Positions 8,211 to 36,437 of a stretch of 36,549 bases of DNA are shown here, piece by piece (position 1 is the stretch's first letter; the number at the start of each line of letters is the position of its first letter). The DNA lies in assembly GCA_014728245.1 (NCBI GenBank), contig WJLY01000224.1, positions 1 to 36,549 of the forward strand, written 5' to 3'. Source of the DNA: Candidatus Effluviviaceae Genus IV sp. GTDB taxonomy: Bacteria; Joyebacterota; Joyebacteria; Joyebacterales; Joyebacteraceae. The position numbers and the translations under genes were made by a program. The notes below the pieces were generated by a model. That model worked only from the letters and a program-made list of their open reading frames with translations. It searched no databases and was not told where the DNA came from.

Positions 8211-8230
8211 TTCGTATACCTCCGCCCCTG

Positions 8231-13613: not shown

Positions 13614-13649
13614 TCCGGGGAGAAGCCAGGCGGCAACGAGAGAAGAAAG

Positions 13650-13692: not shown

Positions 13693-13725
13693 TCCGGCTT
13701 CTCGCGCCGGTCTGCGCTCTACTTC

Positions 13726-14709: not shown

Positions 14710-14793
14710 GTAAGCTCTCCTTTCGCCCCTCTCCCCGAGCGCGTCCAAGAGCCGCTCCCAGGGTCCATCAGAAGCCTGGTCGTGATCGACCTG

Positions 14794-15765: not shown

Positions 15766-15822
15766 GTGCGGTCCTCCTTCCACCTTCCGGTCGCGATACG
15801 GCCGGACCGTACGGCAACACGA

Positions 15823-18225: not shown

Positions 18226-20985
18226 TTACCAGTCTATCGCTATACCCACTTTGATGAGACGACCCTCTCCGAAGACGGAAGGGTCTTGCAGAGGCTCGAG
18301 AACCTGGTTCTCACCCTGGGTCTCCAGATAGGCGCCGCCGAGGTTGCCCGTCTCGGTGTAGTACTCCGCGCCGTAGTAGCCGAGACGCCGGACGTTCTTC
18401 TTGTCGAACACGTTGAGCGCCTCGAAGAAGAGACGGAACTCCTGGCCGTACAGCTTGTACTTCTTCGTCCCCCTCAGGTTCAGGAGCTGGTGAGAGGGAA
18501 GCCTGCCCGAGTTGATCGTCTCCGGGGGAATGTCCTTCTGGCCGACGAATGTCGGAGTGTAGGGAGTACCGCTCCCGTAGTTGTAGTCGAAGGTCACCTC
18601 CCAGTTACCGGGATCGCTCACGAAGAGGAAACCGGTCACAGTATGGCGCTCATCCCAGTCGAGAGGGATCTCCTGCAGCGGCTGCTGCCAGCCCTCCGCC
18701 GCCGCCTGCGCGCCCTGGTTCGGGTCCGAGGACACCCCCGTGGCCTGCAGCCACGTGTAGGTCATGTTGCCCGAGAAGAAGTTCGAGAACCGCTTGGTCA
18801 GCTTGAACTCTATGCCCCGAACCGTGGCGTAGTCCTTGTTGACGTACAGGTACCACTCCGCCGTCGGGTCCTCCTCGGACGTATATGACTCGGTCGCAAG
18901 CAGGCCGAAGATGTCCTTGTAGAAACCGGTGACATCCATCGCCAGGTTCTGTGAGAACTGGTGCTCCGCGCCGAACTGGTACGAGACCGTCACCTCGGGC
19001 TCGAGCTCAGAGGACCCGATGATCCGTCCGACGGTGGCGCCCGTAAGCTCCTCGTTGGCCTCGTAGTACGCCGTCAGGTGAGGCATCTGATAGAAACGGC
19101 CGTAGTGGAAGTGCAGCGCGTCCCTGTCGGAGATCGGATGCGCGATGCCCAGCCTGGGAGAAAGAACCGCGCTGATCCGCTCCCTCCAGATCTGACGCTC
19201 TCCCACGCCGGACTTGGACCCCGGATCGGACCAGTCCAGCCTGAGCCCGGCGCGCACGATCATGCCCTCGTACCTCATCTTGTCCTGGAGGTACATTGCG
19301 CCGTGCGTCGGGAAGGCCTCGTAGATGTTGTGCTCGAACCTCTGATCGGTGTAGAGAGCCTCGTCCCAGTCGAAGAACTGGAACCCCTCCTCCTCGGCCT
19401 CGCCCTCGCTGGGAATGATGCTGCCGAGCGAGAGCTCGGTAACGTCGAGATGGTTGTAGACGAACTCGAGACCCGACTTGAGCTGGTGCGTGTCGTTGGG
19501 CTGATTGGTGACGTCCGCCTTGAAGGTGGTCGTCCTGGTGGTGCTCTCCGACCAGCCCAGATTGTCTCCCCACGTACGGTAGTAGCCGGGTTCCTGGTTC
19601 AGGTCGTTGTCGGAGTCGTGGTCGAGCGTGTTCTCGCGCCAGCCGCCCATGTACGGCTCCCACCAGTAGTCGTTCGGGTCTTCGTAGAGCCACCACTTCT
19701 CTTCCGACTCGAATTGCGCGAGCTTCAGCGTGTAGAACGTCGTCGGGCTGACGTTGTCTCTCCAGACGATCTTCTGCTGGGTGAAGCTGGTCCTCTGCGT
19801 CGGCGTGTGCTCCGCCGCGTTGTAGTACTGGTAGGTCGAGTCGAGACGGACGTGCGACCAGTCCTTGTACTCCGGCGACCAGTACCCCTCGCGCGAATAC
19901 GAGTGACTGTAGTTGTCCCTCACCGTCCGGGAATGCAGGAACTCGCCCGTGAGCTTCTGAGTCGGCGAAACGAAGTACGAGAGCTTCACCTGGCCCGAAC
20001 CCAGCATCGACTGGCGCTCCCGCGCATCGATGCTCAGAAGCTCGGTGTCGCCCACGGAGAGATCCCACGAGTGAATCGGCCTGTTCTCGTTGGTCCTCAG
20101 GTACGTGTCGCTGAAACGCCCCTCTCCCGACACGTAGTAACGCAGCTTGTCGGTGAAGAGCGGACCGCCCATGCCGAACGAGAGGTTGTCGTAGTTGTTA
20201 TAGGTCCGCTCGGGCGCGCCGTAGTCGTCGGTCATGTACTTCACTTCGCCCGAAAACTCGCGGCCTCCCTCCCTCGTCTGCAGGTTGATGACGCCCGACT
20301 GGACGTTCCCGTACTCGGCGTCGAACCCGCCTGACAGAAGCTCGAACTCGGAGAGCGATGAGAGGCTTACCTCGAGGTTCGACGTTCCGGTGGCCGCGTT
20401 GGTGACCGCCATGCCGTCGACGTACATCTTCACCTCGGAGGAACGACCGCCTCGGACGTGGATCTCGCCCTCGTGCAGAACGACGCCCGGCTGGGTCGCC
20501 ACCGCCTCCTGAACCGTGTTGATCGGGCGGACCTTCACCTCCTCCTCATCCATCCCTCGGCGGGTCGTCGTGTCCTCGGTCTCGATCATCGGCCTCTCGG
20601 CCTCGACGACGACCTCCTCGGCCACGATCGCCTCTTCCCTCAGGGCGAAGTCGACCTCTACGGTGCGGTCGGCCTCCACCACGACGTCCGTTATCTGTTG
20701 CTCGGCGTAGCTGATGAACGTCGCCTTCACAACGTATGTGCCGACCGGTACGAAGTCGATGGAGTAGTAACCCTGGGCGTTGGCCATCGCCCCGTAGGGA
20801 GTTCCCATCACAGTCACGTTGGTGTATCCGAGAGGCTCCCCGGTCGAAGCGTCGGTCACGCGACCCGCGATAGTCCCTGTGGCCTGGCCCATTGCGGGCG
20901 CGGCCGTCAGGAGAACCGCCAGAACGAGAAGCGAACCGAGTGCCACTGGGGCGCACTTCCGGGACTTCAGTCTCGGCGCATTCAT
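18226..20985 (-). CDS. TonB-dependent receptor with N-terminal carboxypeptidase-regulatory-like domain
   Basis: GTIAGRVTDASTGEPL N-domain, TonB-box-like EEVVVEA, plug (PGVV...HVRGGRSSE...VDG...SGGFDAEYG...SGVIN), SPRLG, LNVFD, terminal Trp. Confidence 0.92.
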   Translation of the reverse strand: MNAPRLKSRKCAPVALGSLLVLAVLLTAAPAMGQATGTIAGRVTDASTGEPLGYTNVTVMGTPYGAMANAQGYYSIDFVPVGTYVVKATFISYAEQQITDVVVEADRTVEVDFALREEAIVAEEVVVEAERPMIETEDTTTRRGMDEEEVKVRPINTVQEAVATQPGVVLHEGEIHVRGGRSSEVKMYVDGMAVTNAATGTSNLEVSLSSLSEFELLSGGFDAEYGNVQSGVINLQTREGGREFSGEVKYMTDDYGAPERTYNNYDNLSFGMGGPLFTDKLRYYVSGEGRFSDTYLRTNENRPIHSWDLSVGDTELLSIDARERQSMLGSGQVKLSYFVSPTQKLTGEFLHSRTVRDNYSHSYSREGYWSPEYKDWSHVRLDSTYQYYNAAEHTPTQRTSFTQQKIVWRDNVSPTTFYTLKLAQFESEEKWWLYEDPNDYWWEPYMGGWRENTLDHDSDNDLNQEPGYYRTWGDNLGWSESTTRTTTFKADVTNQPNDTHQLKSGLEFVYNHLDVTELSLGSIIPSEGEAEEEGFQFFDWDEALYTDQRFEHNIYEAFPTHGAMYLQDKMRYEGMIVRAGLRLDWSDPGSKSGVGERQIWRERISAVLSPRLGIAHPISDRDALHFHYGRFYQMPHLTAYYEANEELTGATVGRIIGSSELEPEVTVSYQFGAEHQFSQNLAMDVTGFYKDIFGLLATESYTSEEDPTAEWYLYVNKDYATVRGIEFKLTKRFSNFFSGNMTYTWLQATGVSSDPNQGAQAAAEGWQQPLQEIPLDWDERHTVTGFLFVSDPGNWEVTFDYNYGSGTPYTPTFVGQKDIPPETINSGRLPSHQLLNLRGTKKYKLYGQEFRLFFEALNVFDKKNVRRLGYYGAEYYTETGNLGGAYLETQGENQVLEPLQDPSVFGEGRLIKVGIAIDW

Positions 20986-22735: not shown

Positions 22736-23581
22736 CTACGCCGCTCTCTCCGAAGCCCTGCGCCGTCCGGAGATGAAGTACGCCAGGTTGCCGAGGAGTA
22801 TGAAGACGACGATCATGGCGTGCACGATCGACTGCGCGTCCATCCCGCTCGTGGCGTCGCCCGGCGCCCCGATCAGCGTCTCGTACTCCGCCGCTCCCTT
22901 GAGCCCGCCCAGCAGCCCCACGAGCTGCTTGCTCTGCACGTAGGGATAGAAGTTCGGCGCGCCCACCGCGGTCGTTCCCGAGCCAAGCGTCACCTGGAAG
23001 CGACTCTGCACCTGCTGGACCCACTCCCGCGTGCCGGGCGTCCCGGCGGAGACCTCCATCACCATCGCTATGTCGTCGAAGTTCCGCACATCCCGCATGA
23101 TCGGGAGTTCGCGCACCGGCGTGCCGCCGTAATCGGACGGGAACGTGTTGGGAATGCTCGCGCCCATACCCAGAAGCGTCACCGTACCGCCGGCCATGTA
23201 CCCGAGGTTGACGTAATCGACTCCGTAGTCCTTGCCGTACTCCTCTGCCAGCGGATTGAGCGCCGCCTCGACGAGCGGCGGCGATGCCGGCCACAGACAG
23301 GCGACGACCAGGCGGAGGTCCTTCTCGAAGGCGTGCCTGATGAACGTCTCCACCATCGGCTGCAGCTCCGGCATCGTGTCGGGGCTGTAGTCCCCGGCGA
23401 GCATCACGATCGAGCCCTCGGGAACCGCCTCCACGGCGTCGTAGATGCCCTGCACGGGCGGGGAAACGTCGATCGGCAGCCTCATCGGTTGTATGAGAGG
23501 CCACGCCACGGCCAGGAAGATCAGCGCGAAGATGATCCTGCGGTCGATCCTGCCGATGGCGGCGGTCTTCGACTTGGCCAT
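22736..23581 (-). CDS. Uncharacterised protein with two TM anchors around an alpha/beta domain (cassette gene C, copy 2)
   Basis: DRRIIF, DY.P.T.PEL.PM, YG.DYV.LG, GLLGG..GAAEYE, GMD.QS motifs shared with 26455..27297. Confidence 0.85.
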   Translation of the reverse strand: MAKSKTAAIGRIDRRIIFALIFLAVAWPLIQPMRLPIDVSPPVQGIYDAVEAVPEGSIVMLAGDYSPDTMPELQPMVETFIRHAFEKDLRLVVACLWPASPPLVEAALNPLAEEYGKDYGVDYVNLGYMAGGTVTLLGMGASIPNTFPSDYGGTPVRELPIMRDVRNFDDIAMVMEVSAGTPGTREWVQQVQSRFQVTLGSGTTAVGAPNFYPYVQSKQLVGLLGGLKGAAEYETLIGAPGDATSGMDAQSIVHAMIVVFILLGNLAYFISGRRRASERAA

Positions 23582-23595: not shown

Positions 23596-24240
23596 CTACT
23601 TCTCACCGCCGAGATACGAGCGCTCGATTCCGAGTATGATGCGGAGGCCCATTGCCATGACGCCCAGGGCTGCTCCCATGAGAATGCCGCGGAAGGCCGC
23701 CATATTCGGATAGCCCATGATCGTCTCCGTCAGCCACGGAAGTGTCGCCTTCTCCGGAAGGGTCCTCGTCATCCACTGGCCGATGGGGACACGCCCCAGC
23801 ATCACGATGATCGCCGCCACCAGCAGCAAGCCCGCCTCCGCCGACCGCAGCCTGAACGCCCTGTAGGCGGCCGACGCGATGAAGAAGGCCAGAAGCGAGA
23901 ACATCGTGGCCTGGAGCGGCACCTGCATGTTCATGAACATCCAGTTGAAGGGCGAGCCCTCCTCGATCGTACCCCACGGCCCACCGAAGCCGAACATCAC
24001 GGCCATCGCGATGAGGGTGACGATGCTGTATCCCCAACCCTCGCTCTTTCTGCGGATCTTATGGTAGTGGACACGCAGGAGATTGCCCCAGCCGAGCAGG
24101 ATCGACGCAGCAATGACGATCGTGCCCCACTGCTTCATCTCCTCGGCGAGGCCGGAGACCCTGTGATAGGGCACGAAGAAGTCGACCAGCATGAAGATGC
24201 CGATCAGGAAGGTGATTGCCAGCGGTATCTCTCGTCTCAT
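23596..24240 (-). CDS. Uncharacterised multi-pass membrane protein (cassette gene B, copy 2)
   Basis: ATMFSLLAFFIASAAYRAF, MLGRVP, PNMA..RGIL.G, GIER motifs shared with 27340..27969. Confidence 0.85.
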   Translation of the reverse strand: MRREIPLAITFLIGIFMLVDFFVPYHRVSGLAEEMKQWGTIVIAASILLGWGNLLRVHYHKIRRKSEGWGYSIVTLIAMAVMFGFGGPWGTIEEGSPFNWMFMNMQVPLQATMFSLLAFFIASAAYRAFRLRSAEAGLLLVAAIIVMLGRVPIGQWMTRTLPEKATLPWLTETIMGYPNMAAFRGILMGAALGVMAMGLRIILGIERSYLGGEK

Positions 24241-24253: not shown

Positions 24254-25468
24254 CTACAGCGTTTCGAACCAACTCACAAACGCGTCCCAGCCCACCAGGT
24301 TGGCGACGACACCTGCGCCCATCAGCGCGATCGAAAGCGCCTTCATCCAGTCGGAGCCCTTGAGGCTGCCGAGGAGCTTCGGCTCCCTCGACAGGTAGGC
24401 GCTCGCCGCGTACAGCTCCTCGCCCATCAGAGTGAAGTCGCACGCAGTCACGAAAAACGGAAGCTGCGACACCATCGCCGTGCCGGCCACCTGTATGGCG
24501 CCGGCCTCGAAGCCGGTCTCGGCCAAAAGCAGCGACTCCGCCCAGAAGGCGCCCAAGTACAGGTTCGCCGCGGGCTTCTCCCTGAGCATGATGCCGTTCA
24601 CCGCCGCCGCGAAGGCGAACTGCGCGTCCGACAGGTAGCGGATGTTGTCCCGGTTGTACGCGTCCGGGTGGCCCGCCTCGGCGTAGGCCTCCTTGACGAC
24701 CTCCTCCGCCGCCGACATCACGACCGCCCTCGCGGTCGGGACGATGAGCGGCGTCTCGTAGCGGGCCGTGATCTTCGCCACGTGCGAGAGGATCGTCAGG
24801 CTCGCGATCGTCATGATGTTCTCTATCTCGCCGATGCCGGGAACGTACAGCACCGGCCTACCCATTTCGGTCGCCCTCCCCACCGCCTCCTCGATCGCGT
24901 TCAGTCCGGGTATGCGCCGCACGAAGAGCGACACGCCCTTCCGCGCGAGCCGGGTGAAGATGAGGACGAGAGCGAAGAACGTGGTCATGAGCACGAAGAC
25001 CGAGGTTCGCCTCGGTTGCCAGAAGCTCGCCCTCCCCCGGACGGGACCGGCCGTGGCCGGCTCAGACACATTGCCGGAGTCTATGGCGTACACCGAGTAG
25101 AAGTACGGTTCGCCGGGCTCCGCATCCCTGTCGACGTAGTAGTCCGTTCCGGCGGGGACGACGCCCACCGTATCGCCCGGGGCGCCGGCCGACTTCGATC
25201 TCATTATGACGTAGCTCAGCACGTCGGCTTCCCCCGCGCCGTCGTCCGCGGAGGGCGTCCATGAGAGCTGGATCTTGTTCCCGGAGTCATTGTCGCCTAT
25301 GTGGTCGCTTGCGGACGCCCGGGTGGGCGGCGCCGGCGGAACCGTATCAGCAGCGGCATCGGCGATCTCGAGAAGCTCCTCGACGTCGATGCCCGCGTCC
25401 TGCGCCGCCGCCATGCAGGTCGCCGCCGGAATAAGAAGCGTGGTGCAGAATGTAGTGAGGAGGTTCAT
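24254..25468 (-). CDS. Signal peptide + FN3 + TM + DUF6754-like domain protein (cassette gene A, copy 2)
   Basis: FN3-like (LSWTPS.DD...YVD...YFYSVYA), TM, RRIPGL..IEEAVGRATEMGRP, AESL.LAE, GEELYAASAYLS. DUF6754 assignment is from recall. Confidence 0.82.
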   Translation of the reverse strand: MNLLTTFCTTLLIPAATCMAAAQDAGIDVEELLEIADAAADTVPPAPPTRASASDHIGDNDSGNKIQLSWTPSADDGAGEADVLSYVIMRSKSAGAPGDTVGVVPAGTDYYVDRDAEPGEPYFYSVYAIDSGNVSEPATAGPVRGRASFWQPRRTSVFVLMTTFFALVLIFTRLARKGVSLFVRRIPGLNAIEEAVGRATEMGRPVLYVPGIGEIENIMTIASLTILSHVAKITARYETPLIVPTARAVVMSAAEEVVKEAYAEAGHPDAYNRDNIRYLSDAQFAFAAAVNGIMLREKPAANLYLGAFWAESLLLAETGFEAGAIQVAGTAMVSQLPFFVTACDFTLMGEELYAASAYLSREPKLLGSLKGSDWMKALSIALMGAGVVANLVGWDAFVSWFETL

Positions 25469-26454: not shown

Positions 26455-27297
26455 TCACGCAGTCTTCTTCTCGGATTTCCGCGTAGCGAAGTACGCCACG
26501 TTGCCGATCACGATGAGCAGGATGATCAGCATGTGGATGATCGACTGCGAGTCCATACCCCGCGTTCCCTGGTCCGGCTGCTCTATGAGCGCCTCGTATT
26601 CGGCCGCTCCACGCATACCGCCAAGGAGCCCCTCCAGCTGATCGGCGCCCAGATACGGATAGTAGTCCGTGGCCATGACGGCGGTCACGCCCGCGGCGAC
26701 CATCTGCCCGTAGGGCTCGTGGGCGTAGTAGATCCACGACTCGGCGTAGGCGGAGCCCGCCAAGGTTATCACAAGCGGGATGTCGTCGTAGTTGCGAACG
26801 CCGTCCATGACCGGAAGTCGGGTCAAGGCCGTTCCGTATGCGTCCTCGGGGAACGCGTTCCTTATGTTCACGCCCATGCTCAGGATGACCGCGGAGATCC
26901 CGGGCTGGAAGCCCAGGAAGACGTAGTCCTCGCCGTAGACGCGGTCGTACTCCTCGGCGGCCTGCAGGAGGGCCCGCTCGGCCAGCCCGTAGCCGGCCGG
27001 GTGAAGCGTGATGACGACGACATTGACGTCGTTCTCGAACGCGTGGCGCAGAAGCGCCAGCGTCATCGGTTCCAGTTCCGGAAGCGTCGCCGGCGCGTAG
27101 TCTACCGACAGCAGCAGCGGCTGCGAGTTTGCTGGCAGGCTGTCCATCTTCTCGTAGAGCCTCTGCACGGGAGAGGTCACCGTCACGGGCAGCCCCAGAG
27201 GCAAGATGAAAGGCACGACCACTGCGATGGCCACGAGCAGGAAGATCCACCTGCGGTCGACCCTGAGGATCTTGTCGAATATGGTGTTGCCTTCCAT
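26455..27297 (-). CDS. Uncharacterised protein with two TM anchors around an alpha/beta domain (cassette gene C, copy 1)
   Basis: Colinear paralog of 22736..23581; ATG 27297 after GGGAGAG. Confidence 0.85.
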   Translation of the reverse strand: MEGNTIFDKILRVDRRWIFLLVAIAVVVPFILPLGLPVTVTSPVQRLYEKMDSLPANSQPLLLSVDYAPATLPELEPMTLALLRHAFENDVNVVVITLHPAGYGLAERALLQAAEEYDRVYGEDYVFLGFQPGISAVILSMGVNIRNAFPEDAYGTALTRLPVMDGVRNYDDIPLVITLAGSAYAESWIYYAHEPYGQMVAAGVTAVMATDYYPYLGADQLEGLLGGMRGAAEYEALIEQPDQGTRGMDSQSIIHMLIILLIVIGNVAYFATRKSEKKTA

Positions 27298-27339
27298 CAA
27301 ACTCTCCCGAAGAGCGGGCCTGAGCGCCGCGCGGTCGAC

Positions 27340-27969
27340 CTAGTCGCGTCCGCCCATCCACGCCCGCTCGATACCGAGCACGATCTTGAGCGCCGTCGCC
27401 ATCATCCCTAATCCCACACCGATGAGTATCCCGCGCTTCGACGCCATGTTGGGCACCTCCAGGATCCACCGCGTCGCCACGGGTATCTGATCATGTATGA
27501 GTTCCCCAAGCGGCACGCGGCCCAGCATGACCACCGTCGCCGCCACGAGAAGCAGCGTGGCCTCGAGCGTCCTGGCCTTGAACGCGCGGAAGGCCGCGGA
27601 CGCGACGTAGAACGCCAGGAGCGAGAACATCGTCGCCTCGATCGGTACCTGAACGTTCTGGAACATCGCATCGAAGGGCGAGCCCGGGGAGTGGTGCGCC
27701 GGGTGGAAGAAACCCAGCCCGATCATTGCCGCAAGCCCGATGAGCGCGACGAAACTGTAGCCGCGGTCGTCCGCCCTGTTCCTGATCTTGTGATAGTGGA
27801 GCTTTATCAGACTGACAGTCCCCAGCAGGAACGCGAACGCCAGCAGAGTCATGAGCCACGAGAGCAACCGTTCCTGGAAGTCCTGCACGGCAGAGTGTGG
27901 GATGAAGTACTGGACCGCCGTGAAGACGCCGGCTATGAAGCAGAGCATGAGAGGGACCTGTCGGCGCAT
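27340..27969 (-). CDS. Uncharacterised multi-pass membrane protein (cassette gene B, copy 1)
   Basis: Colinear paralog of 23596..24240 (MRRQVPL vs MRREIPL; ATMFSLLAF; GIER). Confidence 0.85.
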   Translation of the reverse strand: MRRQVPLMLCFIAGVFTAVQYFIPHSAVQDFQERLLSWLMTLLAFAFLLGTVSLIKLHYHKIRNRADDRGYSFVALIGLAAMIGLGFFHPAHHSPGSPFDAMFQNVQVPIEATMFSLLAFYVASAAFRAFKARTLEATLLLVAATVVMLGRVPLGELIHDQIPVATRWILEVPNMASKRGILIGVGLGMMATALKIVLGIERAWMGGRD

Positions 27970-27992: not shown

Positions 27993-29246
27993 CTAGCCCG
28001 TCATATAGAGAGGGGCCATGAAGTCTGAAGCTATGACGTCGGTCGCCGCGAGCGTGGCCACGATGAAGCCTATGATCAGGAGGACGCCCACGATGAACTT
28101 GGCCGTGTCCTGTCCCTTGAGCCCGCCGAGGAGCACCGGCTCCCTCGACAGGTAGGCGCTCGCCGCGTACAGCTCCTCGCCGATGATCGTGTAGTCGCAA
28201 GACGTGATGAAGAAAGGAAGCTGCGTCACCGCGTCCGTGCCCGCGATCTGAATCGAACCTACGGACGCGCCGGTCTCGGCCAGCACCAGCGACTCGGCGA
28301 AGAACATGCCCATGTAGAGAATCGTGGCCGGGCGCTGTCGGACCATGATGCCGTTCACGCCGGCCACGTATGCGAACTGGCTTCTCGTCAGGTAGAAGAC
28401 GTCGTCCTCGCTGTAGGCCTCGGGTCGTCCCACCTCCGCGTAGGCCTCACGCACGACCTCCTGCTCGACCGCCATGACGATCGGGTCGGCGCAGGGGACG
28501 ATCAGCCTCGTGTTGTACTCGGCCGTCTTCTTGGCAACCTCGCCAAGAATATTGATGGCCGCGATCGTGGCCACATCCGAGATCGACGACAGCCCGCTGA
28601 TGTAGAGGATCGGCTTCCCCATCTCTGTGGCGCGGCCCACCGCGTTCTCGAGCTCGTCGAGGCCTGCAAGGCGCCGGATGAAGAGCTCCTTGCCCGCGCG
28701 GGCCGAGTTCACGAAGTAGACGATCGCCGTCACGAAGATGATGACGCCGATCAGGACGTTAACCCGGTCGGTGTTAAACCACTGGGGGAACGACGAGGTC
28801 GGACCCGCGATCTCCGAGAACGCGTAGCTCTCCCCGTCTGTGGCGGCGACCCTGTGGTAGTACTCGAGATCGTTGTCGAGACCGGTGTCCCTGTACTCCG
28901 TGATACCGGGAGGCACTCTCCCCGCGAACGCGAACCCCGTGTCAGGATCGGTCGTCCGGTAGATCTCGTACGAGACGATCTCGCCCTCCGGCTCGTCTAC
29001 GGATGGCTCCCATGAGACCACCACGGCGCCGCCGCGGTCGTTCTCCGCGTCGACCGACACCAGGCCGGTCGGCGGAGCGAACGTCGGAGCCGCTACGGTG
29101 TCCGCCTTGACGTCCTCCACGTCGGCCTCGTCCTGGGCGAACACGCCCGCCGGACACAGAAAGAGGGCCGCGAGCGCCAGGAACAAGGCGAATACGGCCC
29201 AACCGGCGGATCTTGCAGGGGTCGAGCGCTCCCCGTCTGCGAACAT
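27993..29246 (-). CDS. Signal peptide + FN3 + TM + DUF6754-like domain protein (cassette gene A, copy 1)
   Basis: Paralog of 24254..25468; AVGRATEMGKP, GEELYAASAYLSREP; ATG 29246 after GAAAGGA. Confidence 0.82.
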   Translation of the reverse strand: MFADGERSTPARSAGWAVFALFLALAALFLCPAGVFAQDEADVEDVKADTVAAPTFAPPTGLVSVDAENDRGGAVVVSWEPSVDEPEGEIVSYEIYRTTDPDTGFAFAGRVPPGITEYRDTGLDNDLEYYHRVAATDGESYAFSEIAGPTSSFPQWFNTDRVNVLIGVIIFVTAIVYFVNSARAGKELFIRRLAGLDELENAVGRATEMGKPILYISGLSSISDVATIAAINILGEVAKKTAEYNTRLIVPCADPIVMAVEQEVVREAYAEVGRPEAYSEDDVFYLTRSQFAYVAGVNGIMVRQRPATILYMGMFFAESLVLAETGASVGSIQIAGTDAVTQLPFFITSCDYTIIGEELYAASAYLSREPVLLGGLKGQDTAKFIVGVLLIIGFIVATLAATDVIASDFMAPLYMTG

Positions 29247-29322
29247 CAACCATTCCTTTCGCTAGTCACGAACGGCGGGGGGCGCCGTTCCGCGGCTCGC
29301 GCGTTCCAGCAAGTGAAATCGG

Positions 29323-29421: not shown

Positions 29422-30549
29422 TCACCGCTCGATCATCTCCACGTTGGCGCGCGGCAGCAGCACCTCCTGTCCGTCGTCCAGCTTCACGGAGAGAACGCGC
29501 ACCATCGTCTCGGACTCCATCTTCCGGAGCTCGTTCGGCAGATCGACGACCTCGCCCAGGCTCCCGAAGTTCGGCTCGCGGATCACCCTGATCCTGCTCC
29601 CGACGTCGAGCCCCATCGAGGCGACGTGACCCTTCTCGACCTCCTCCTTCCGAACGCCCTCCAGTGGAACCACTATCTCGGGCCTGATGACTCCGGCTCT
29701 TATCTGGGTCGCGCCGTTGATCGACGCCTTGCGCCCCTCGCGCGACCTGAGAAGGTCGAACGTGGCCGGGGCCATGGACATCTCGCCGAAACCCTCTGTG
29801 AGGATCAGCGTTGAGCGAAGGTCCTCCTGCCCGGTTATGGCCACGCCGATGTCTTTCCCGAGAAGCTCCCGGAGATCGGGATCGTCGAATCCGCCGACCA
29901 CGACGCCCGACGCGCCGACCTCCATCGCTCTCTGCAGCGCATCCCACGTCACGTGAGATCCGCCGACGAGCACCTTGTCCTCGCACGAACCGTCGATTCG
30001 CGAGGCGTCGAGCGGATCGGCCGGCCCGTCAACGAGGACCTTGATCTCCCCGGTCCGCTCTCCGCCGACGCCGAAGATCCCCTGGATGAATGAGCCGACC
30101 GTCTCGACCACGACTCCCTCTTCCTCGATGATGTCCACCACCTTGCCGTCGATGTAGGCGTCAATCTCGATGGGGGTCGGAGGCTCGCGGAAGATCGCCT
30201 GCCCGGTGATCTTCGAGACGCTCTCGAGCGTACCATCGCACGGCGCCGGCACTCTCGACTTGAACAGCCCGAAGAATCCCTGCGTCTCCGCGACCGCCTC
30301 TCCCTTCCCCACCTTCTCCCCGTCCTCCTTCTTCATCACGGTCGGGAGATCCTCCGCGGGAATGCCGAGCTTGCTCGCAATATTGAGAAGCTGCACGTTG
30401 CCCGGAAGGTGCGTGCGGGCGACGACCGTGTCCGACCTGACATCGTCGCCCTTGTTGACTAGGACTTCTCCCTTGATGGGCAGCCTCCGGTCCTTCCTGA
30501 AGACCGTGAGCTCGGCCACCTTGAGTCCCGGTGTGTACGCGTGTGCCAT
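29422..30549 (-). CDS. Uncharacterised soluble protein with barrel-sandwich-hybrid-like repeats and a KOW/SH3-like C-terminus
   Basis: LVNKGDDVRSDTVVA, KEDGEKVGKGEAVAE...APCDGTL, AYIDGKVVDI half-motifs; LTEGFG; GSRIRVIREPNFGSLGEV. GAGGAG RBS. Confidence 0.78.
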   Translation of the reverse strand: MAHAYTPGLKVAELTVFRKDRRLPIKGEVLVNKGDDVRSDTVVARTHLPGNVQLLNIASKLGIPAEDLPTVMKKEDGEKVGKGEAVAETQGFFGLFKSRVPAPCDGTLESVSKITGQAIFREPPTPIEIDAYIDGKVVDIIEEEGVVVETVGSFIQGIFGVGGERTGEIKVLVDGPADPLDASRIDGSCEDKVLVGGSHVTWDALQRAMEVGASGVVVGGFDDPDLRELLGKDIGVAITGQEDLRSTLILTEGFGEMSMAPATFDLLRSREGRKASINGATQIRAGVIRPEIVVPLEGVRKEEVEKGHVASMGLDVGSRIRVIREPNFGSLGEVVDLPNELRKMESETMVRVLSVKLDDGQEVLLPRANVEMIER

Positions 30550-30621: not shown

Positions 30622-32424
30622 CTACTCGGTCGGGTAAGCGTCGAACGCCTTCGCCCAGCGCTCCAGCCTGGCGATGCGCTCCTTCTCGTCGGTCGGGAGC
30701 TCGAACGGCCTGCCCCTCGTGTCGACCATGAGGCCCACGACTCCGCCCGACACGGTGCGTTCGACCGGCTTCGCCGGCCCGTCTCCCAGATCGAAGCCGC
30801 GCGCCGGCGAGAGCTTGATCTTCGCCTTCTCGTCGATACCCAGCGGGTAGGCCCGCATCTCGCCGTACGGGATCTCCTCACTGACGCTCGATCCGTCGGG
30901 CATCGTCGCCTCGATCTTGACACACGGCTTGCCCTCCTGTGACGTCCCCACCGGGGCGATCAGCGGTCCCAGATGTATCAGGCAGTCCTTCTCGAAGACC
31001 TCGGTGGCCGCCTTCTGGTGGACCTCGGCGAGCACGCCGAGCTGCGGCATCATGAAGATCGAGTCGACCGCCAGCCTGGTTATGCCCTCAGGCAGGAAAC
31101 CGTCGATCAGCATCATGGCCGCCTGCTGCCTCCTGGGCGCGTGCGAGAGGACCCCGCCGGACCCCACCAGGATGTCCAGGTCCATCATGTCGACGAGCGT
31201 AGCGCCGGACGACGACTGGTCGAAGGCCTCCGAGATCGTCCTCTCCTGCTGCACACCCTTCAGGCTCACCGCGAACGACTTGTGCTGCTCGAAAGCGAGC
31301 CTCAAGGCCTCCCTGGCAATCGCCTGCTCGAGCTTGAGGTCGCCGAGCGCCTGAGGAACGGTCGTCGGCCGGATCATCTTGTTCTTGATCCGGTTCCGGA
31401 CCTCCAGCTCGCCCAGACCGAACGGGACCCACCTCATCACGTTCTCGATCCCCGCCTCGGCCAGCACGTTCGAGACCGAGTAGCTCATGCCGAGGTTGGC
31501 GGAGACCGTCCTGTTGAACGTATCCTTGAAAACGGAGAATACGTCGGTCGTGGCGCCGCCGATGTCGACTCCGACCGCCTCGATCCCCTGCTGCTTGGCG
31601 ATCGTCTCTATGAGCGAGCCGACCGCGCCCGGAGTGGGCATGATGGGAGCGTCGGTCCAGCCCATCAGCTTGTCGTACCCCGGCGCCTGGGCCATCACGT
31701 GCTCCATGAAGAGATCGTGTATCTTGTCCCGCGCCGGCCCCAGGTTTTCGCGCTCGAGGACCGGCCGGAGGTTCTCCACGTTGTAGAGCACGGTCTTTTC
31801 CTCGAGGAGCTTCCCGACCTCCTCACCGGCGTCGACGTTGCCCGCGTAGATGACGGGCAGGTCGTAGCCCGTGCCGAGCCGCGGCTTCGGATCGGCGGCC
31901 GATATGATCTGCGCAAGCTCGACCACGTGGGTGATGGTGCCACCGTCGATGCCCCCGGAGAGGAGGATCATGTCGGGCCGGAGGTGGCGGATGCGCTCGA
32001 TCTGCTCGTGCGCCAGCCTCCCGTCGTTCGAGGCGAGCACGTCCATCACGATCGCACCTGCGCCGAGCGCCGCGCGCTGCGCGCTCTCGGCCGTCATGCT
32101 CATCACGACGCCCGCCACCATCATCTGCAGGCCGCCTCCCGCGCTCGAGGTCGAGACGTAGAGATCGACGCCCCGCTCTCCGTCGTTCGGGTGTATGATC
32201 TTCTCTCCCTCGAGGACCTCGTGTCCCGAGAGCTCCTCCACCTCCCGGATCGCGTTCAACACTCCTCGGGTCACGTCCTCGAAGGGCGCCTCCACCGTGG
32301 TGGGGGCCTCTCCCCTAACGATCAACCTGTACTCGCCGTCAACGAGCTTGATCAGGATCGCCTTCGTCGTTGTGCTGCCGCAGTCAGTGGCGACGATCGC
32401 TCTGACCTTGCCGTTCTCACTCAT
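30622..32424 (-). CDS. glmL: GlmL (glutamate mutase L)-like ASKHA/actin-fold ATPase with C-terminal extension
   Basis: DCGSTTTK (phosphate 1), TSSAGGGL, ALGAGA, PDMILLSGGIDGG, MPTP, VDIGGATTDVFS (phosphate 2), RTVSANLGMS, GSGGVL. ATG 32424 overlaps the upstream stop. Confidence 0.8.
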   Translation of the reverse strand: MSENGKVRAIVATDCGSTTTKAILIKLVDGEYRLIVRGEAPTTVEAPFEDVTRGVLNAIREVEELSGHEVLEGEKIIHPNDGERGVDLYVSTSSAGGGLQMMVAGVVMSMTAESAQRAALGAGAIVMDVLASNDGRLAHEQIERIRHLRPDMILLSGGIDGGTITHVVELAQIISAADPKPRLGTGYDLPVIYAGNVDAGEEVGKLLEEKTVLYNVENLRPVLERENLGPARDKIHDLFMEHVMAQAPGYDKLMGWTDAPIMPTPGAVGSLIETIAKQQGIEAVGVDIGGATTDVFSVFKDTFNRTVSANLGMSYSVSNVLAEAGIENVMRWVPFGLGELEVRNRIKNKMIRPTTVPQALGDLKLEQAIAREALRLAFEQHKSFAVSLKGVQQERTISEAFDQSSSGATLVDMMDLDILVGSGGVLSHAPRRQQAAMMLIDGFLPEGITRLAVDSIFMMPQLGVLAEVHQKAATEVFEKDCLIHLGPLIAPVGTSQEGKPCVKIEATMPDGSSVSEEIPYGEMRAYPLGIDEKAKIKLSPARGFDLGDGPAKPVERTVSGGVVGLMVDTRGRPFELPTDEKERIARLERWAKAFDAYPTE

Positions 32425-32800
32425 CCGCACCTTCCTTAAGCGCTTTCGCGGCGCGACGCTCCTCGCGCCTTCGTTTACGCTCCTCGCGCTCCTTCTTGCG
32501 GCGCTCGGACTCCACTTCCTCTATCTTCAGAAGGAGATACTCGATGTTCTCCCTTTCCTCAAGTATCTCGATGAACTCGTCGTAGGTCTTGAAGTTGAAG
32601 ATCGACTGCACGATCGGCTGGAAGAATATGAGCGCCTGGTTCCCGAGAAACGAGAGCGGCTTGGCCGACTCCAGGAACAGTATCGCGGGCGCCGTCATCC
32701 TCCATTCCACTATCCTGGCGGCGAAACGATCCATGATCTCCCGGTGCTCCGGGCGGGGGCGCTCCTCATTGCTCCTGTCCTTCATCGCCCACATCGGCAT
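32417..32800 (-). CDS. Small hypothetical protein
   Basis: Overlaps both neighbours; PAILFLESAKPLSFLGNQ core, LEERENIEYLL, charged tail. Start uncertain (32800 or 32785). Confidence 0.75.
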   Translation of the reverse strand: MPMWAMKDRSNEERPRPEHREIMDRFAARIVEWRMTAPAILFLESAKPLSFLGNQALIFFQPIVQSIFNFKTYDEFIEILEERENIEYLLLKIEEVESERRKKEREERKRRREERRAAKALKEGADE

Positions 32801-33212
32801 CGGTCTCTCTCCGCCTCTCCACCATCTTCCTCACGAACTCGATCACTTCTTCGCGGTTGTCGTGGAACTGCAGCGACAACCCTCTGAACCTGGCCAGCCT
32901 CGACGGCTCCTCGAACGGGGAGAGCAGCACTCCGTCCTCGTCGACCGAGTAGCTCCTGAAGTCGCTCCAGCGCTTCTCCCTCTTCGACACCACTCCCTTG
33001 ACCGACACCGTCTCCTCGGTCAGCTCATACCGGGTGGGGAGGAAGAACCCCGCCACCTGCCCCCAGACCAGAGCCACCGCGACGATCGTGAAATAGCCGG
33101 CGTTGAGCCAGGTCTGGAGGAACCACGCCGTCAGTACGACGAAACCTATCGCGACCGCCGCCCTGAGCGGGTGAAGCACCATCGGCCATGAGCGCCAGGA
33201 GAGCGGCTCCAC
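32766..33212 (-). CDS. Hypothetical membrane protein (2 TM plus a bacterial PH-like beta domain)
   Basis: Two hydrophobic helices, then FLPTRYELTEETV...KRWSDFRSY...VLLSPF; starts 3 nt after the gcvPB stop. Confidence 0.72.
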   Translation of the reverse strand: MEPLSWRSWPMVLHPLRAAVAIGFVVLTAWFLQTWLNAGYFTIVAVALVWGQVAGFFLPTRYELTEETVSVKGVVSKREKRWSDFRSYSVDEDGVLLSPFEEPSRLARFRGLSLQFHDNREEVIEFVRKMVERRRETDADVGDEGQEQ

Positions 33213-33215: not shown

Positions 33216-34706
33216 CTACTCGTCCTCCCACACGACGTCCAGCTCCCTCGCCGCGCGGGCCTCGTCGAGACGGCCGACGGGCGTTTCGACGGGCGCTCCG
33301 GTCACCGCTTCGGGGTCCTCTCGTACCTCGTCGGCGATCCGTCGCATCGCCGCGATGAACCCGTCGAGCGACCGCCTGCTCTCCGTCTCCGTCGGCTCGA
33401 TCATGAGCGCCTCTTTCACGATCAGAGGGAAGTAGATCGTCGGCGCGTGCAGGCCCATGTCGAGCAGGCGCTTCGCCACGTCCAGGGCCCTGACGCCCTC
33501 TTCCTTCTGGCGCGAGACCGACAACACGAACTCATGCTGGCATCTGCCGCCGTACGGAAGCTCGTAGACGTCTCTCAGACTCTCCTGCAGATAGTTCGCG
33601 TTCAGAACGGCGTTCTCCGCAACGCGCCGGAGCCCCGAAGGACCGAGAGAGAGTATGTAGGCGTAGGCCTTGACCATCACCAGGAAGTTCCCGTACCACG
33701 AGTGCACCTTCCCGATCGATCTGGGCCTGTCGTAGTCCATGTAGTACTCGACGCCGCCCGTCCGTCGCTCGTCCCTCGCGGGAAGCGGTCCCGGCAGGTA
33801 GCCGGCGAGCGGGGACTTCACCCCGATCGGGCCTGAGCCGGGGCCGCCGCCCCCGTGCGGAGCCGAGAACGTCTTGTGCAGATTGAAGTGCATCACGTCG
33901 AAACCCAGGTCTCCGGGACGCACGACGCCCAGCGACGCGTTCAGGTTGGCGCCGTCGAGATATGCGAGGCCGCCCGCATCGTGGACGATCCCGGTCAGCT
34001 CGTCGACGCGTCGCTCGAACACGCCGAGCGTGTTGGGATTCGTGATCATCACGCCGGCCGTGTCCTCGTCCATGAGCTCGCGCAGGCGTTCGATGTCGAC
34101 CCTGCCGTCGGGCCCCGACGCCAGCTCGACGGGACTGAATCCCGAGAGCGCGAGGCTGGCGGGGTTGGTGCCGTGGGCCGAATCGGGCACGATCACCTTG
34201 GTCCGCCTCTCCCCTCTGTCGCGCATCACGGCGCGGAAGATGAGCATGCCCGCCAGCTCTCCCGAAGCGCCGGCGGGCGGTTGCAGGCTCACCGCGTCCA
34301 TGCCTGAGATCTCGCACAGATGCCGGGAGAGATCGTACATGAGGGCGATCGCCCCCTGGCACTCCGAGGGCTCCGTCTCGGGATGCAGCCGCGTGAAGCC
34401 TCGGAGCCCGGCCACCTCCTCGTTGATCTTGGGGTTGTACTTCATCGTGCACGACCCCAGCGGATAGATCGCCTTCTCGATGTGGTGGTTCATCTCGGCG
34501 AGCCTCATGAAGTGCCGGGCCACCTCGGGCTCGGTAAGTTCGGGGAGAGCGGGCGGGGCCCCTCGCAGGTTCTCCTCGCCGAACGCCTCGGCCGGATCGA
34601 TCGGCTCGACGTCCGGCTCGGGTAGTCGCCACTTCCCTCGCCCGGGCGAGCTGAGCTCGAAGACCGTGGGCTCCGGCGCCCGCTTCTCTCGCAAGAGAAC
34701 TGTCAC
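33216..34706 (-). CDS. gcvPB: Glycine dehydrogenase (decarboxylating) subunit 2
   Basis: YPLGSCTMKYNPK, SAHGTNPAS, TNPNTLG, PLP-lysine motif HFNLHKTFSAPHGGGGPG, MIEPTETES. Confidence 0.97.
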   Translation of the reverse strand: MTVLLREKRAPEPTVFELSSPGRGKWRLPEPDVEPIDPAEAFGEENLRGAPPALPELTEPEVARHFMRLAEMNHHIEKAIYPLGSCTMKYNPKINEEVAGLRGFTRLHPETEPSECQGAIALMYDLSRHLCEISGMDAVSLQPPAGASGELAGMLIFRAVMRDRGERRTKVIVPDSAHGTNPASLALSGFSPVELASGPDGRVDIERLRELMDEDTAGVMITNPNTLGVFERRVDELTGIVHDAGGLAYLDGANLNASLGVVRPGDLGFDVMHFNLHKTFSAPHGGGGPGSGPIGVKSPLAGYLPGPLPARDERRTGGVEYYMDYDRPRSIGKVHSWYGNFLVMVKAYAYILSLGPSGLRRVAENAVLNANYLQESLRDVYELPYGGRCQHEFVLSVSRQKEEGVRALDVAKRLLDMGLHAPTIYFPLIVKEALMIEPTETESRRSLDGFIAAMRRIADEVREDPEAVTGAPVETPVGRLDEARAARELDVVWEDE

Positions 34707-36058
34707 CTGCCGTCCCCCTGTTCCACGACCGCCCTTATCGCCGAGGTAAGCGTGTCAACGTCGTGTTTCCCGTGCGTCTCGGATACCGACACCAGGAGGC
34801 AGTCGTCGAGCCCCTCATAGTAACACCCGCAGGAGAGGCCCGGCCAGATCCCCGCCTCTGCGAGCTCAGCCTTCACGCGACGCGCGTCGAAGGGCAGCCT
34901 CACGGCGAACTCGCGGAAGAACGGCCGGGGGAACCTGAGCGAGACGCCGTCTATCCGCGACAGGGCCGCCGCCGCGTAATGCGCCGTCGACGATACGCGA
35001 AGCGCCAGCTCGCGGAGCCCGCGCGCCCCGAGGAGCGACATGTACACGGTCGCTCCCAGGGCGACGAGCGCCTGGTTCGTGCAGATGTTGGATGTCGCCT
35101 TCTCCCGTCTGATGTGCTGCTCGCGTGTCTGTAGCGTCATCACGTAGCCACGTCGGCCGTCGGCGTCCTCCGTCGCGCCGATTATCCTTCCGGGCATCTT
35201 CCTGAGGTACTTCCGGCGTGTCGCCATGAAGCCCAGGAGCGGACCGCCGTAGCCCATCGGCGCGCCGAGCGACTGCCCCTCGCCGACAGCGATGTCGGCG
35301 CCGTATTCGCCCGGCGGAGAGAGCAGAAGAAGCGATAGCGGATCGACCACGGCCACGAGCAGCGCGCCCGCGGAATCCGCCTGCCGCCCGAGCTCCTTCA
35401 TGGGCTCGAGCGACCCGAAGAAGTTCGGATGCTGAACGATCAGCGCCGCCGCCCCGCTCAGGGCCTCTGCCGCCGAGGCGGGATCGGTCGCTCCTTCTCC
35501 GACGGGAAGCTCCTCGATCTCGACGTCGAGCGAGGACACGTACGTCCTCAGCACGTCGCGGAACATCGGAGACAACGTGCCCGCAACCGCCAGCTTCCGC
35601 CTCTTCCTGACGTCGACCGCCATGAGCGCCGCCTCCGCCGTCGCAGTGGCGCCGTCGTAGAGCGACGCGTTGGCCACCTCCATGGCCGTGAGGCGCGCGA
35701 CCATCGTCTGGAACTCGTAGATCGCCTGGAGCGTGCCCTGGCTCGCCTCCGCCTGGTACGGAGTGTAGGCCGTGTAGAACTGGGGCATGCCGGTGATTCG
35801 GGAGACCGCGGCCGGGACGTACGTGTCGTAGACCCCACCTCCGAGGAAGGACAAGACGTCGTCGGCGGTCCGGTTCATGCTCGCGAGCTTCATCATGTGG
35901 CGATGAAGCTCCTGCTCCGAAAGAGGGCCCGGAACGTCGAGCGGGCGCCCGAGCCGTAGGTCTTCGGGAATGTCCTCGAAGAGCTCGCCCGGGTCCTTCG
36001 CCCCGATCCGACGGAGCATGTGCTCGCGGTCGCTGTCGGTGTTGGGAACGTACGGCAA
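34703..36058 (-). CDS. gcvPA: Glycine dehydrogenase (decarboxylating) subunit 1
   Basis: SFLGGG, TAYTPYQAEASQG.LQ, NASLYDGAT, LQTREQHIRREKATSNICTNQ. TTG start. Confidence 0.97.
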   Translation of the reverse strand: MPYVPNTDSDREHMLRRIGAKDPGELFEDIPEDLRLGRPLDVPGPLSEQELHRHMMKLASMNRTADDVLSFLGGGVYDTYVPAAVSRITGMPQFYTAYTPYQAEASQGTLQAIYEFQTMVARLTAMEVANASLYDGATATAEAALMAVDVRKRRKLAVAGTLSPMFRDVLRTYVSSLDVEIEELPVGEGATDPASAAEALSGAAALIVQHPNFFGSLEPMKELGRQADSAGALLVAVVDPLSLLLLSPPGEYGADIAVGEGQSLGAPMGYGGPLLGFMATRRKYLRKMPGRIIGATEDADGRRGYVMTLQTREQHIRREKATSNICTNQALVALGATVYMSLLGARGLRELALRVSSTAHYAAAALSRIDGVSLRFPRPFFREFAVRLPFDARRVKAELAEAGIWPGLSCGCYYEGLDDCLLVSVSETHGKHDVDTLTSAIRAVVEQGDGR

Positions 36059-36065
36059 GAGCGGC

Positions 36066-36437
36066 TTATCCCTTCGTGTATTCCTCGTACTCCGAGGCGG
36101 TCATCAGGCCGTCGAGCTCGCCTGGGTTCTCGAATTCGATTCGGAGGATCCAGCCGGCCCCCTGGGGGTCGCTGTTTATCGCGCCCGGCTCCTCCTCGAG
36201 GTTCTCGTTGACGGCCGAAACCTTCCCCGAGAGCGGCGCGTAGATCTCACTCACGCTCTTGACCGACTCGACCGTCGTCAGGCTCTCGCCCTGTGACACG
36301 TCGGTCCCGACCTCGGGCAGCTCGACGAACACGATGTCGCCCAACTCGCCCTGGGCGTAGTCGGAGAGCCCTACAGTCGCCTGATCGCCTTCGACCCTGA
36401 CCCACTCGTGCGTCTTAGCGAACTTGAGATCGTCCAT
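36066..36437 (-). CDS. gcvH: Glycine cleavage system H protein
   Basis: HEWV, GLSDYAQGELGDIVFVELP, lipoyl-lysine motif VESVKSVSE, INSDP..GW. Confidence 0.98.
   Translation of the reverse strand: MDDLKFAKTHEWVRVEGDQATVGLSDYAQGELGDIVFVELPEVGTDVSQGESLTTVESVKSVSEIYAPLSGKVSAVNENLEEEPGAINSDPQGAGWILRIEFENPGELDGLMTASEYEEYTKG

Follow-up and report, generated by a model that had tools for sequence, protein, structure and literature searches.

The gene at 30622..32424 (minus strand) of contig WJLY01000224.1 from Candidatus Effluviviaceae Genus IV sp. (Joyebacterota; assembly GCA_014728245.1), here called H, encodes a GlmL-like ATPase of 600 amino acids (aa). H is a member of a PF13941 clade that is very large, unstudied and separate from GlmL, and it is not a reactivase of a B12 mutase. 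The analysis covered a stretch of 36,549 nucleotides (nt), positions 1 to 36,549 of this contig, which is called the window below. The following gene, G (29422..30549, minus strand), encodes the constant neighbour of H, to which it is fused in many lineages. In the subfamily of H, the H-G pair shares an operon with two further genes, J and I, and with a membrane cassette of four genes, F-E-D-C, present in one to three copies. We infer that H-G serves a hitherto undescribed membrane machine as its ATP-driven module in the cytoplasm, a function to which we give about an even chance of being right.

The open reading frame (ORF) of H extends over 30622..32430 on the minus strand and would encode 602 aa from a GTG at 32430. 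Immediately 5′ of an ATG at 32424 stands the Shine-Dalgarno sequence AAGGAAGG, and the same ATG overlaps the stop codon of the upstream 127-aa ORF I (32417..32800, minus strand) by 8 nt, as ATGAGTGA, so that the overlap with an upstream hypothetical gene proposed in the original prediction was found as described. Because of this upstream sequence and the 8-nt overlap, the ATG is likely to be the better start; the resulting 600-aa form is also an entry in a public protein collection. Residue numbers of H follow the 602-aa (GTG) frame throughout. The Pfam model PF13941 (“MutL”; gathering cut-off, 27 bits) matched residues 12-483 with 425 bits (E 4.4e-127) over model positions 1-450 of 450. This ATPase core (30982..32397, minus strand) contains intact nucleotide motifs, namely phosphate-1 (TDCGSTTTK), phosphate-2 (DIGGATTD) and adenosine (GSGG); D16 was invariant, and D289, G291, T294 and T295 were conserved at 90% or more, in an alignment of 44 sequences. 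A helix-loop specific to the clade occupies residues 341-365 of the core (RNRIKNKMIRPTTVP). Its motifs and modelled fold identify H as an ASKHA (actin-fold) ATPase, hydrolysis itself being predicted.

The last 119 residues of H (484-602; 30625..30981, minus strand) form a tail that matched no Pfam family even at an E-value of 10 and no Protein Data Bank (PDB) entry in sequence and profile searches. AlphaFold2, run with the 44-sequence alignment, modelled H with a predicted local distance difference test (pLDDT) score of 91.0 and a predicted template-modelling score (pTM) of 0.89, and placed in the tail a beta-rich domain (strands within 484-570) followed by a C-terminal helix (582-596), with a pLDDT of 91-97 over this block. 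A protein of about 600 aa with an additional beta-rich C-terminal tail had been expected, and both features were confirmed; its end had been misplaced at …DTRGRP, which 27 further residues follow, including the terminal helix. This sequence lies in a conserved tail motif, GGxxGxxxDxRGRP, where D570 and R572 were invariant and R574 nearly so among the 44 sequences; across 35 tails, the invariant positions were D-x-R-G-R together with L-G, P and several G. The tail was less conserved than the core, with mean identities to the window H of 0.36 and 0.53, respectively. The idea that the tail is a copy of a domain of G was discarded (hhalign probability, 0.1%).

H fell below all GlmL and Or-4 cut-offs of NCBIfam, scoring 229.6 bits against GlmL (NF040745; cut-off, 475), 220.4 bits against Or-4 (NF040744; cut-off, 600) and 166.4 bits against the subfamily model glmL_fam (TIGR01319; cut-off, 204.05). 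Four of four GlmLs from annotated glmS-glmL-glmE-mal operons passed glmL_fam (417-891 bits) and scored 447.9-632.6 bits against NF040745, three of them above its equivalog cut-off, and none of eight other long or fused forms passed glmL_fam (75-172 bits). A search of cluster representatives (clusters at 50% identity) with H detected 3149 proteins at E ≤0.001, including 812 at E ≤1e-30. Of 162 tree candidates, 6 of which came from the public protein collection, 136 with a match spanning core residues 25-470 were kept and 26 fragments were dropped; 81 of the kept sequences were 560-760 aa long, 45 were longer and 10 were shorter. FastTree was run on these 136 sequences, the window H and six short references, and all 137 representatives, whether long, fused or short, fell on the same side of a branch (length, 0.99; support, 100). 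The other side held the four canonical GlmLs and a Fusobacterium homologue, and an Acetoanaerobium homologue stood alone. An IQ-TREE analysis of 45 rows (the window H, the six references and 38 sequences drawn randomly from the 136) split all 39 long or fused rows from canonical GlmL with a support of 100/100 and in 100% of 200 bootstrap trees. Both trees were made without outgroup rooting, and in both H was separated from operon-verified GlmL.

Comparison with the known members of the family agreed with this separation. GlmL, or MutL, the accessory protein of methylaspartate (glutamate) mutase, is called a chaperone that reactivates glutamate mutase in a passage of one paper (PMC4682846), and a passage of another places glutamate mutase among the non-polymerising actin-fold families (PMC5597319). 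H and GlmL have in common the PF13941 family, the ASKHA core and the phosphate-1, phosphate-2 and adenosine motifs, with 27-33% identity over H residues 2-483. Canonical GlmL, which is 461-467 aa long and encoded between glmS and glmE, ends where the tail of H starts. It carries a 15-residue insert after phosphate-2 which is missing from H and the long clade, whereas these carry an RNxxxNKMIRPTTxP segment which is missing from canonical GlmL. H differs further in its tail of about 120 aa, in its partner G and in its host genomes, which lack GlmE. Or-4, which is related to GlmL and belongs to ornithine degradation, likewise shares the PF13941 core with H, and the short Acetoanaerobium homologue, which is possibly of the Or-4 kind although not annotated as such, lies outside the long clade.

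Searches of the genome yielded no glutamate mutase. Pfam searches of 29 window ORFs found no B12 mutase, as the original prediction had stated, and neither the window nor the recurrent neighbours of 80 related loci (see below) contained glmS or glmE beside H; no mutase was present among those recurrent neighbours. In its own genome (2.75 Mb, 325 contigs, 90.35% complete), H was the single PF13941 gene, and there were no matches to GlmE (PF06368). Nor was GlmE found in any of 31 genomes of the phylum, 20 of them of high quality, or in any of five H carriers from other phyla, three of which are single-chromosome assemblies. As a positive control, it was found in three of three records with an annotated glmS-glmL-glmE operon. 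The genome of H encodes four B12-binding domains, assigned from the translations and, for two of them, with NCBIfam: those of a MetH-like protein, the small subunit of methylmalonyl-CoA mutase (MCM; TIGR00640, 175.6 bits), a methyltransferase corrinoid protein and a B12 radical-SAM protein. None of the four was of the GlmS, OraE or KamE type, and no B12 domain of the OraS or OraE type was found in the genome. Two MCM large subunits were present, one with MeaB on the same contig. Lys-AminoMut_A (PF09043) had no match in this genome, but the control genomes gave none either, so that this search is uninformative by itself. These data indicate that H is not a reactivase of a B12 mutase, and a distant B12 client is very unlikely. 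H had been proposed to represent a repurposed subfamily, not tied to B12 mutases and acting on a different client. The NCBIfam scores, the 100/100 branch and the absence of GlmE bore out the separate subfamily, H neither clustering with mutase-linked GlmL nor having a cognate mutase that was found elsewhere in the genome.

The clade to which H belongs is widespread, and its proteins are labelled “methylaspartate mutase” or “glutamate mutase L” in public sources. A scan with one genome per species found relatives of H in at least 574 of 185,579 species genomes (at least 598 matching stretches), and H was 66-73% identical across phyla. The best 80 of the at least 598 stretches were kept as loci, over which the identity was 66-91%; they come from metagenome-assembled genomes labelled Eisenbacteria, Zixibacteria, Neomarinimicrobiota/Marinimicrobia, Ignavibacteria, Methylomirabilota, Sumerlaeota/BRC1, Coatesbacteria, WOR-3, Lentisphaeria and others. 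Within the phylum of the window, H was present in 29 of 31 genomes and in all 20 of high quality. A profile of the tail matched 77 of the 81 tree representatives of 560-760 aa, and the tail is a hallmark of the large clade, not a peculiarity of the window H. A limited literature search found nothing on PF13941, TIGR01319 or the names used for this clade. Three members of the long clade (P0134, P0140 and P0255) have degenerate phosphate-1 and phosphate-2 motifs, which are intact in the lineage of the window, and may be pseudo-ATPases. Four Bacillota-type proteins of 1304-1334 aa (P0121-P0124) are H-like, tail included. P0122-P0124 begin with a peptidase M1 domain, which is followed in P0122 by membrane-like segments, and a layout of this type would tether the ATPase directly to the membrane.

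G, a protein of 375 aa, was recognised as the partner of H by adjacency, fusion and a model of the complex. Gene content of the 80 loci was assigned by tblastn with the window proteins, with a match required over at least half of the query length. G followed H on the same strand in 68 of the 80 loci; of the 12 in which it was missing, 8 stop no more than about 600 bases past H. An extra 0.4-2 kb lies between H and G in several Zixibacteria- or Ignavibacteria-type loci (among L045, L047, L018, L083, L052 and L054). The two proteins are also found as one. P0130 (995 aa) consists of H (60% identity, residues 8-602) followed by full-length G (46%), and P0128 (1057 aa) of a zinc ribbon, H and a G-like part at 32% identity. 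A 995-aa cluster of the ESM Atlas, with PF13941 in all members, matched the G model with a template-modelling (TM) score of 0.89. A profile of G matched 41 of the 45 tree representatives of more than 760 aa, in every case behind the H part, and 2 of the 81 of 560-760 aa; the other 4 of the 45, which are of the Bacillota type, start with a peptidase M1 domain and contain a membrane segment. In the fusions, the tail of H sits between the core and G. A second H-G paralogue, in which the two are fused, occurs in most genomes of the phylum; it shows about 45% identity in the core, and its open frames encode 695-1066 aa. Examples from the sister genomes G003 and G018 lie at 7946-10657 (minus strand) of L094 and 8251-11031 (plus strand) of L095. 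No fused paralogue was found in the window's own assembly.

The AlphaFold2 model of G (pLDDT 84.9) was divided into a barrel-sandwich hybrid (residues ~49-123), a swivelling beta/beta/alpha domain (~152-297) with a TEGFG loop at 251-255, and a KOW/SH3-like barrel (~311-375), after a conserved N-terminus, AYTPGLK. Pfam gave only sub-threshold matches, to RnfC_N and Biotin_lipoyl. When the model was compared with 48,161 chains by VIA-align, residues 152-297 matched the phosphohistidine (swivelling) domain of phosphotransferase system (PTS) enzyme I (Z 9.7; root-mean-square deviation [rmsd] 2.6; 104 aligned residues), rifampin phosphotransferase (Z 8.9), RraA (Z 8.4), the extra C-terminal domain of Bacillus pyruvate kinase (Z 8.3) and aconitase X (Z 7.9). 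Residues 311-375 matched KOW/SH3-like barrels (Z 8-9), and residues 49-123 matched NqrA (Z 7.5) and RnfC (Z 7.3). These Z-scores are middling, and the matches indicate the predicted fold of G and no function.

The H-G complex was modelled with a score of 0.81, against 0.01 for the best of three controls; three runs agreed in at least 75% of the contacts, with a partner pLDDT of at least 84. Among solved complexes, 116 of 157 attained the mark used for this score, as did 2 of 215 mismatched pairs; these counts apply only approximately here because we supplied our own alignments. Since PDB sequence and profile searches found no solved relative of either H or G, the pass is unlikely to reflect memory of a solved complex. 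The modelled interface comprised residues 19, 129, 293, 312-324, 341-365, 430-433 and 600 of H and residues 6, 158-159, 222-238, 253-255, 281-285, 323-328, 344-350 and 365-371 of G, the tightest pairs being those of H 345-353 with F254 of G. In the model, G binds the ATPase core of H through the clade-specific helix-loop 341-365. The original prediction had the tail of H as a candidate for docking to G; the modelled contacts were instead in the core (312-365 and 430-433), and the tail touched G by residue 600 only. Conservation of G was higher in the interface than in the rest of the protein (0.79 versus 0.54; 0 of 10,000 random draws were as high), and its most conserved residues, in the TEGFG loop, a TQIRAG stretch and the KOW barrel, were modelled in the interface. 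For H, the difference was smaller (0.58 versus 0.49; about 3 in 100 draws were as high). At the edge of the modelled interface were both phosphate loops of H, with residues 19 and 293, and the conserved N-terminal end of G; G could therefore sense or control the nucleotide state of H.

The genes around H-G in the window encode mainly membrane proteins. Upstream of H are I, whose product has a conserved hydrophobic core and a Lys/Arg/Glu-rich tail (found in 65 of the 80 loci, next to H or after G), and J (32766..33212, minus strand; 148 aa), in which a soluble C-terminal part follows two hydrophobic helices at the N-terminus (36 of 80 loci, in each case next to I). Downstream of G, on the same strand, follow two full F-E-D-C cassettes. 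In cassette 1, F1 (27993..29249) consists of a signal anchor, an FN3 domain, a transmembrane helix and DUF6754 (PF20539, 397.6 bits); E1 (27340..27969; 209 aa; 48 of 80 loci) is polytopic with about six hydrophobic stretches; D1 (26455..27300; 281 aa; 45 of 80 loci) has N- and C-terminal transmembrane helices around a soluble domain of about 200 aa; and C1 (25557..26402; 281 aa; 42 of 80 loci) is a polytopic membrane protein. Cassette 2 is composed of paralogues of these: F2 (24254..25468), with FN3 and DUF6754 (380.9 bits), is 47% identical to F1; E2 (23596..24240; 214 aa) is 48% identical to E1; D2 (22736..23581; 281 aa) is 46% identical to D1 over 264 aa; and C2 (22045..22725; 226 aa) matched C1 in two in-frame tblastn pieces (40% and 67% identity) with an internal stretch missing. 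These assignments were made from the ORFs and hydropathy, with Pfam for F. The genes from gcvH (36437) to C2 (22045) are consecutive on the minus strand with gaps of at most 172 nt, and terminator-like sites within this stretch were not above chance. In Pfam scans at E up to 5, neither I nor J reached the cut-off of any family; E, D and C likewise had no match over a cut-off, and no PDB relative in sequence or profile searches. PDB searches with H, G, F, D, E, C and the tail matched the FN3 part of F and otherwise gave nothing better than E 0.003, over short unrelated stretches. In the ESM Atlas, the DUF6754 part matched DUF6754 clusters only, and a limited literature search found nothing on DUF6754. 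D and the DUF6754 domain of F, which looked like paralogues by eye, were rejected as such (hhalign probability, 2%), as were E and C (0.4%). PADLOC, which scans for anti-phage defence, assigned none of the eight proteins (H, G, I, J, F, E, D and C) to a family.

The association of the cassette with H-G extends over many phyla, with at least one DUF6754 gene beside H-G in 49 of the 80 loci, typically as F-E-D-C repeated one to three times. The two cassettes of the window hold the only DUF6754 genes of its assembly. DUF6754 was present in 30 of the 31 genomes of the phylum, and the only genome without it (G011, 92% complete) was also the one with only the fused H paralogue. Five genomes with cassette-less H-G loci were searched, and all five carried DUF6754 elsewhere, in 1-6 copies, versus none of 14 control genomes. 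Cassette proteins were 33-50% identical across loci, versus the 66-73% of H across phyla. In two loci (L018 and L083) a cassette is upstream and on the opposite strand. In most sister genomes, a different contig carries a third DUF6754 gene, apart from both H-G and the fused paralogue (e.g. G028:C17:27787-28527 and G003:C14:43835-44578). Beyond the core genes, the recurrent neighbours were lineage-specific genes for housekeeping or transport: CdsA, ribosomal S6 and L9, peptidyl-tRNA hydrolase, ABC transporter parts and glycine-cleavage genes.

In the window, the H cluster is flanked upstream by gcvH, gcvPA and gcvPB (33216-36437, minus strand) and downstream by a lipoate-protein ligase with an LplA/B catalytic domain (21131-~21880, minus strand), and it looks as if the cluster had been inserted into a glycine-cleavage/lipoylation operon. 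gcvPB adjoins I-H in 13 of the 80 loci, of which 5 do not belong to the window's own group; in 2 further loci, gcvH takes this place. With these flanking genes in mind, G was considered as a lipoyl or biotinyl carrier, an idea that was set aside: the Biotin_lipoyl match had an E-value of 0.05, and no lysine was conserved at 90% or more in the hairpin 72-119.

In the machine that we propose, H-G would bind and hydrolyse ATP and thereby drive or gate the membrane complexes of F-E-D-C. Either the beta-rich tail of H or the barrel-sandwich domain of G, or both, would be free to dock on the cytoplasmic face of F-E-D-C. As output, there would be either transport or a conformational signal, passed through the membrane to the FN3 and D domains, which would face outward. 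A more specific form, in which H-G is the motor of a new class of membrane machine, with the actin-fold ATPase clamped by G powering F-E-D-C units (1-6 per genome), is possible but doubtful.

Several observations weigh against a membrane machine. The link between H-G and the cassette was drawn from co-occurrence and gene order, and the genomes counted for co-occurrence are related and not independent of one another. At least eight loci (L019, L021, L023, L028, L033, L037, L047 and L051) continue for at least 3.5 kb past G with no cassette, and four (L013, L043, L070 and L085) continue for at least 2.4 kb past H, yet contain no G. The fused paralogue of the sister genomes has no F, E, D or C neighbours and lies near genes for rubrerythrin, RNase G, a radical-SAM protein, DUF4139 and MatE; because these neighbours are unrelated, the module can work away from the cassette. 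For E, D, C and the DUF6754 domain, no relative was recognised that would point to a function of the cassette, and we know of no transporter or membrane machine that is driven by an ASKHA ATPase. The nearest solved folds to H by aligned length are soluble ATP-dependent carboxylases and hydantoinases.

The fold searches with the H model, which covered residues 7-474 only, returned a broad range of ASKHA proteins. Foldseek ranked the ATP subunits of acetophenone/acetone carboxylase, N-methylhydantoinase and caprolactamase highest (E 3.6e-10 to 3.5e-6), with low TM-scores to the carboxylases (0.29-0.32); Hsp70s, FtsA and sugar kinases ranked lower, and diol dehydratase reactivase was at rank 50. 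The VIA matches, which also included Hsp70 and sugar kinases, had an overall Z of 11-15 and comprised FtsA (Z 15.2; rmsd 5.6; 273 aligned residues), activators of the HgdC/BcrAD type (Z 13-14), acetone carboxylase (Z 13.1; rmsd 6.5; 349 residues, the longest alignment), PilM (Z 12.9) and DdrA (Z 11.9; rmsd 5.7; 268 residues). As modelled, the fold does not choose among ASKHA functions, and there are three less probable alternatives to the membrane machine: a soluble enzyme, a chaperone and a scaffold.

The first of these, which we consider unlikely but marginally the best of the alternatives, is that H-G is a soluble ATP-dependent enzyme that phosphorylates or carboxylates a small metabolite in the manner of the HyuA-type ATP subunits of hydantoinase, oxoprolinase and acetone carboxylase, the cassettes transporting its substrate or product. 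HyuA-type ATP subunits gave the best Foldseek E-values and the longest structural alignments with H, and the Pfam family Hydantoinase_A (PF01968) reached 23.3 bits over the whole protein (cut-off, 22.9), although no single stretch passed; Hydant_A_N (PF05378) reached 19.8 bits (cut-off, 25.2). The middle domain of G has the modelled fold of the phosphate-carrying domain in phosphoenolpyruvate (PEP)-using enzymes, and the glycine-cleavage genes described above adjoin the cluster. However, TM-scores to the HyuA type were only about 0.3, and no HyuB-type catalytic partner was found. The HyuA-type alignments stop at residue 491-493 of H, and the tail is therefore not the HyuA C-terminal domain. 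Despite the similar fold, G had no Pfam match to the PEP-utiliser family at E up to 5, and the position of the histidine in the phosphate-carrying loop is presumably Met259 in G, as read by eye against the consensus. Neighbours beyond the core vary by phylum and are mostly housekeeping genes, and the degenerate phosphate motifs in some lineages of the clade would be odd for an enzyme.

A chaperone or assembly factor, comparable to a B12-enzyme reactivase or an Hsp70 and using ATP to remodel, assemble or repair a client (F-E-D-C or another enzyme) without being a standing part of a machine, follows closely among the alternatives and is likewise improbable; it corresponds to the different client of the original prediction. 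The only studied members of the family are called chaperone-like reactivases in the passage cited above (PMC4682846). In glycerol and diol dehydratase reactivases, the alpha subunit is described, in a part of one paper, as composed of ATPase, insert, linker and swivelling domains, the last of which holds an exchangeable partner (PMC7674605). The ASKHA core of DdrA/GdrA thus works with a swivelling domain, a fold which in H-G would be supplied by G (its best match being the domain of PTS enzyme I), and Hsp70s as well as DdrA were among the fold matches of H. The absence of DdrA from the listed fold matches of G does not exclude a likeness to DdrA. The fused paralogue without a cassette also fits a freely acting factor. 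H-G differs from DdrA/GdrA in that the swivelling domain is on a separate or C-terminally fused G, together with barrel-sandwich and KOW domains, and in that no client-mimicking beta subunit was recognised and no B12 enzyme is present. Searches with Pfam and NCBIfam found no candidate cofactor-bearing client in the operon, and the high identity of H relative to the cassette proteins, together with the fixed operon order, is more usual for a stoichiometric subunit than for a factor that makes occasional repairs.

It is still less probable that H is a membrane-tethered actin-like scaffold which, like FtsA or PilM, binds the cytoplasmic peptides of bitopic proteins, maybe polymerises, and organises an assembly spanning the envelope without powering it. 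FtsA had the top VIA Z-score, H is very highly conserved across phyla, and the operon holds bitopic membrane proteins (J, F and D) with short cytoplasmic ends. The Z-scores of FtsA, the HgdC type and the carboxylase are nearly tied, however, and the fold does not pick FtsA. H has no sequence-level relation to FtsA or PilM, has an inserted domain of the GlmL type in addition to the tail, and, by hydropathy, contains no hydrophobic stretch and no evident membrane-targeting helix; G has no counterpart in those systems. A classical reactivase whose B12 enzyme is encoded elsewhere (the genome's own MCM, with its two large subunits and one small subunit, or a mutase in the unassembled 10%) would fit the Pfam family, the incomplete genome and the Lys-AminoMut_A search without a working control, but is highly improbable in view of the NCBIfam scores, both trees, the GlmE counts with their control, the four B12-binding domains, the MeaB that MCM has on the same contig, and the lack of a mutase among the recurrent neighbours.

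Further genes lie in the remainder of the window, beyond the H cluster and its flanking genes. A MacB-type tripartite efflux set (1544-6143, minus strand) comprises an FtsX/MacB_PCD permease, an ABC ATPase, an HlyD-type adaptor and an outer-membrane efflux protein. A Yip1-domain protein (6145-6918) and a TonB_C protein (7115-7747) come next, then five large ORFs of 462-773 aa without a Pfam family at E 1e-5 (8357-18144) and a TonB-dependent-receptor-like protein with CarboxypepD_reg and Plug domains (18226-20985).

For the family, the separation of H from GlmL means that metabolic reconstructions of Zixibacteria, Marinimicrobia/Fidelibacterota, Eisenbacteria, Methylomirabilota, Cloacimonetes and others may wrongly credit these organisms with a step of B12-dependent glutamate fermentation. 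The identity of 66-73% that H maintains across phyla is at the level seen in core machinery, and its partner proteins have no known family. The proposal made here defines a testable hypothesis, that of a 1:1 H-G module with a modelled, mapped interface, wired to DUF6754 cassettes. If H-G drives membrane proteins, this would be a new way to couple ATP to a membrane process, in which H-G would stand where every known primary transporter or envelope machine has an ABC, AAA+, P-type or rotary ATPase. It would then represent a core function of many uncultivated phyla, hidden under the label “glutamate mutase L”.

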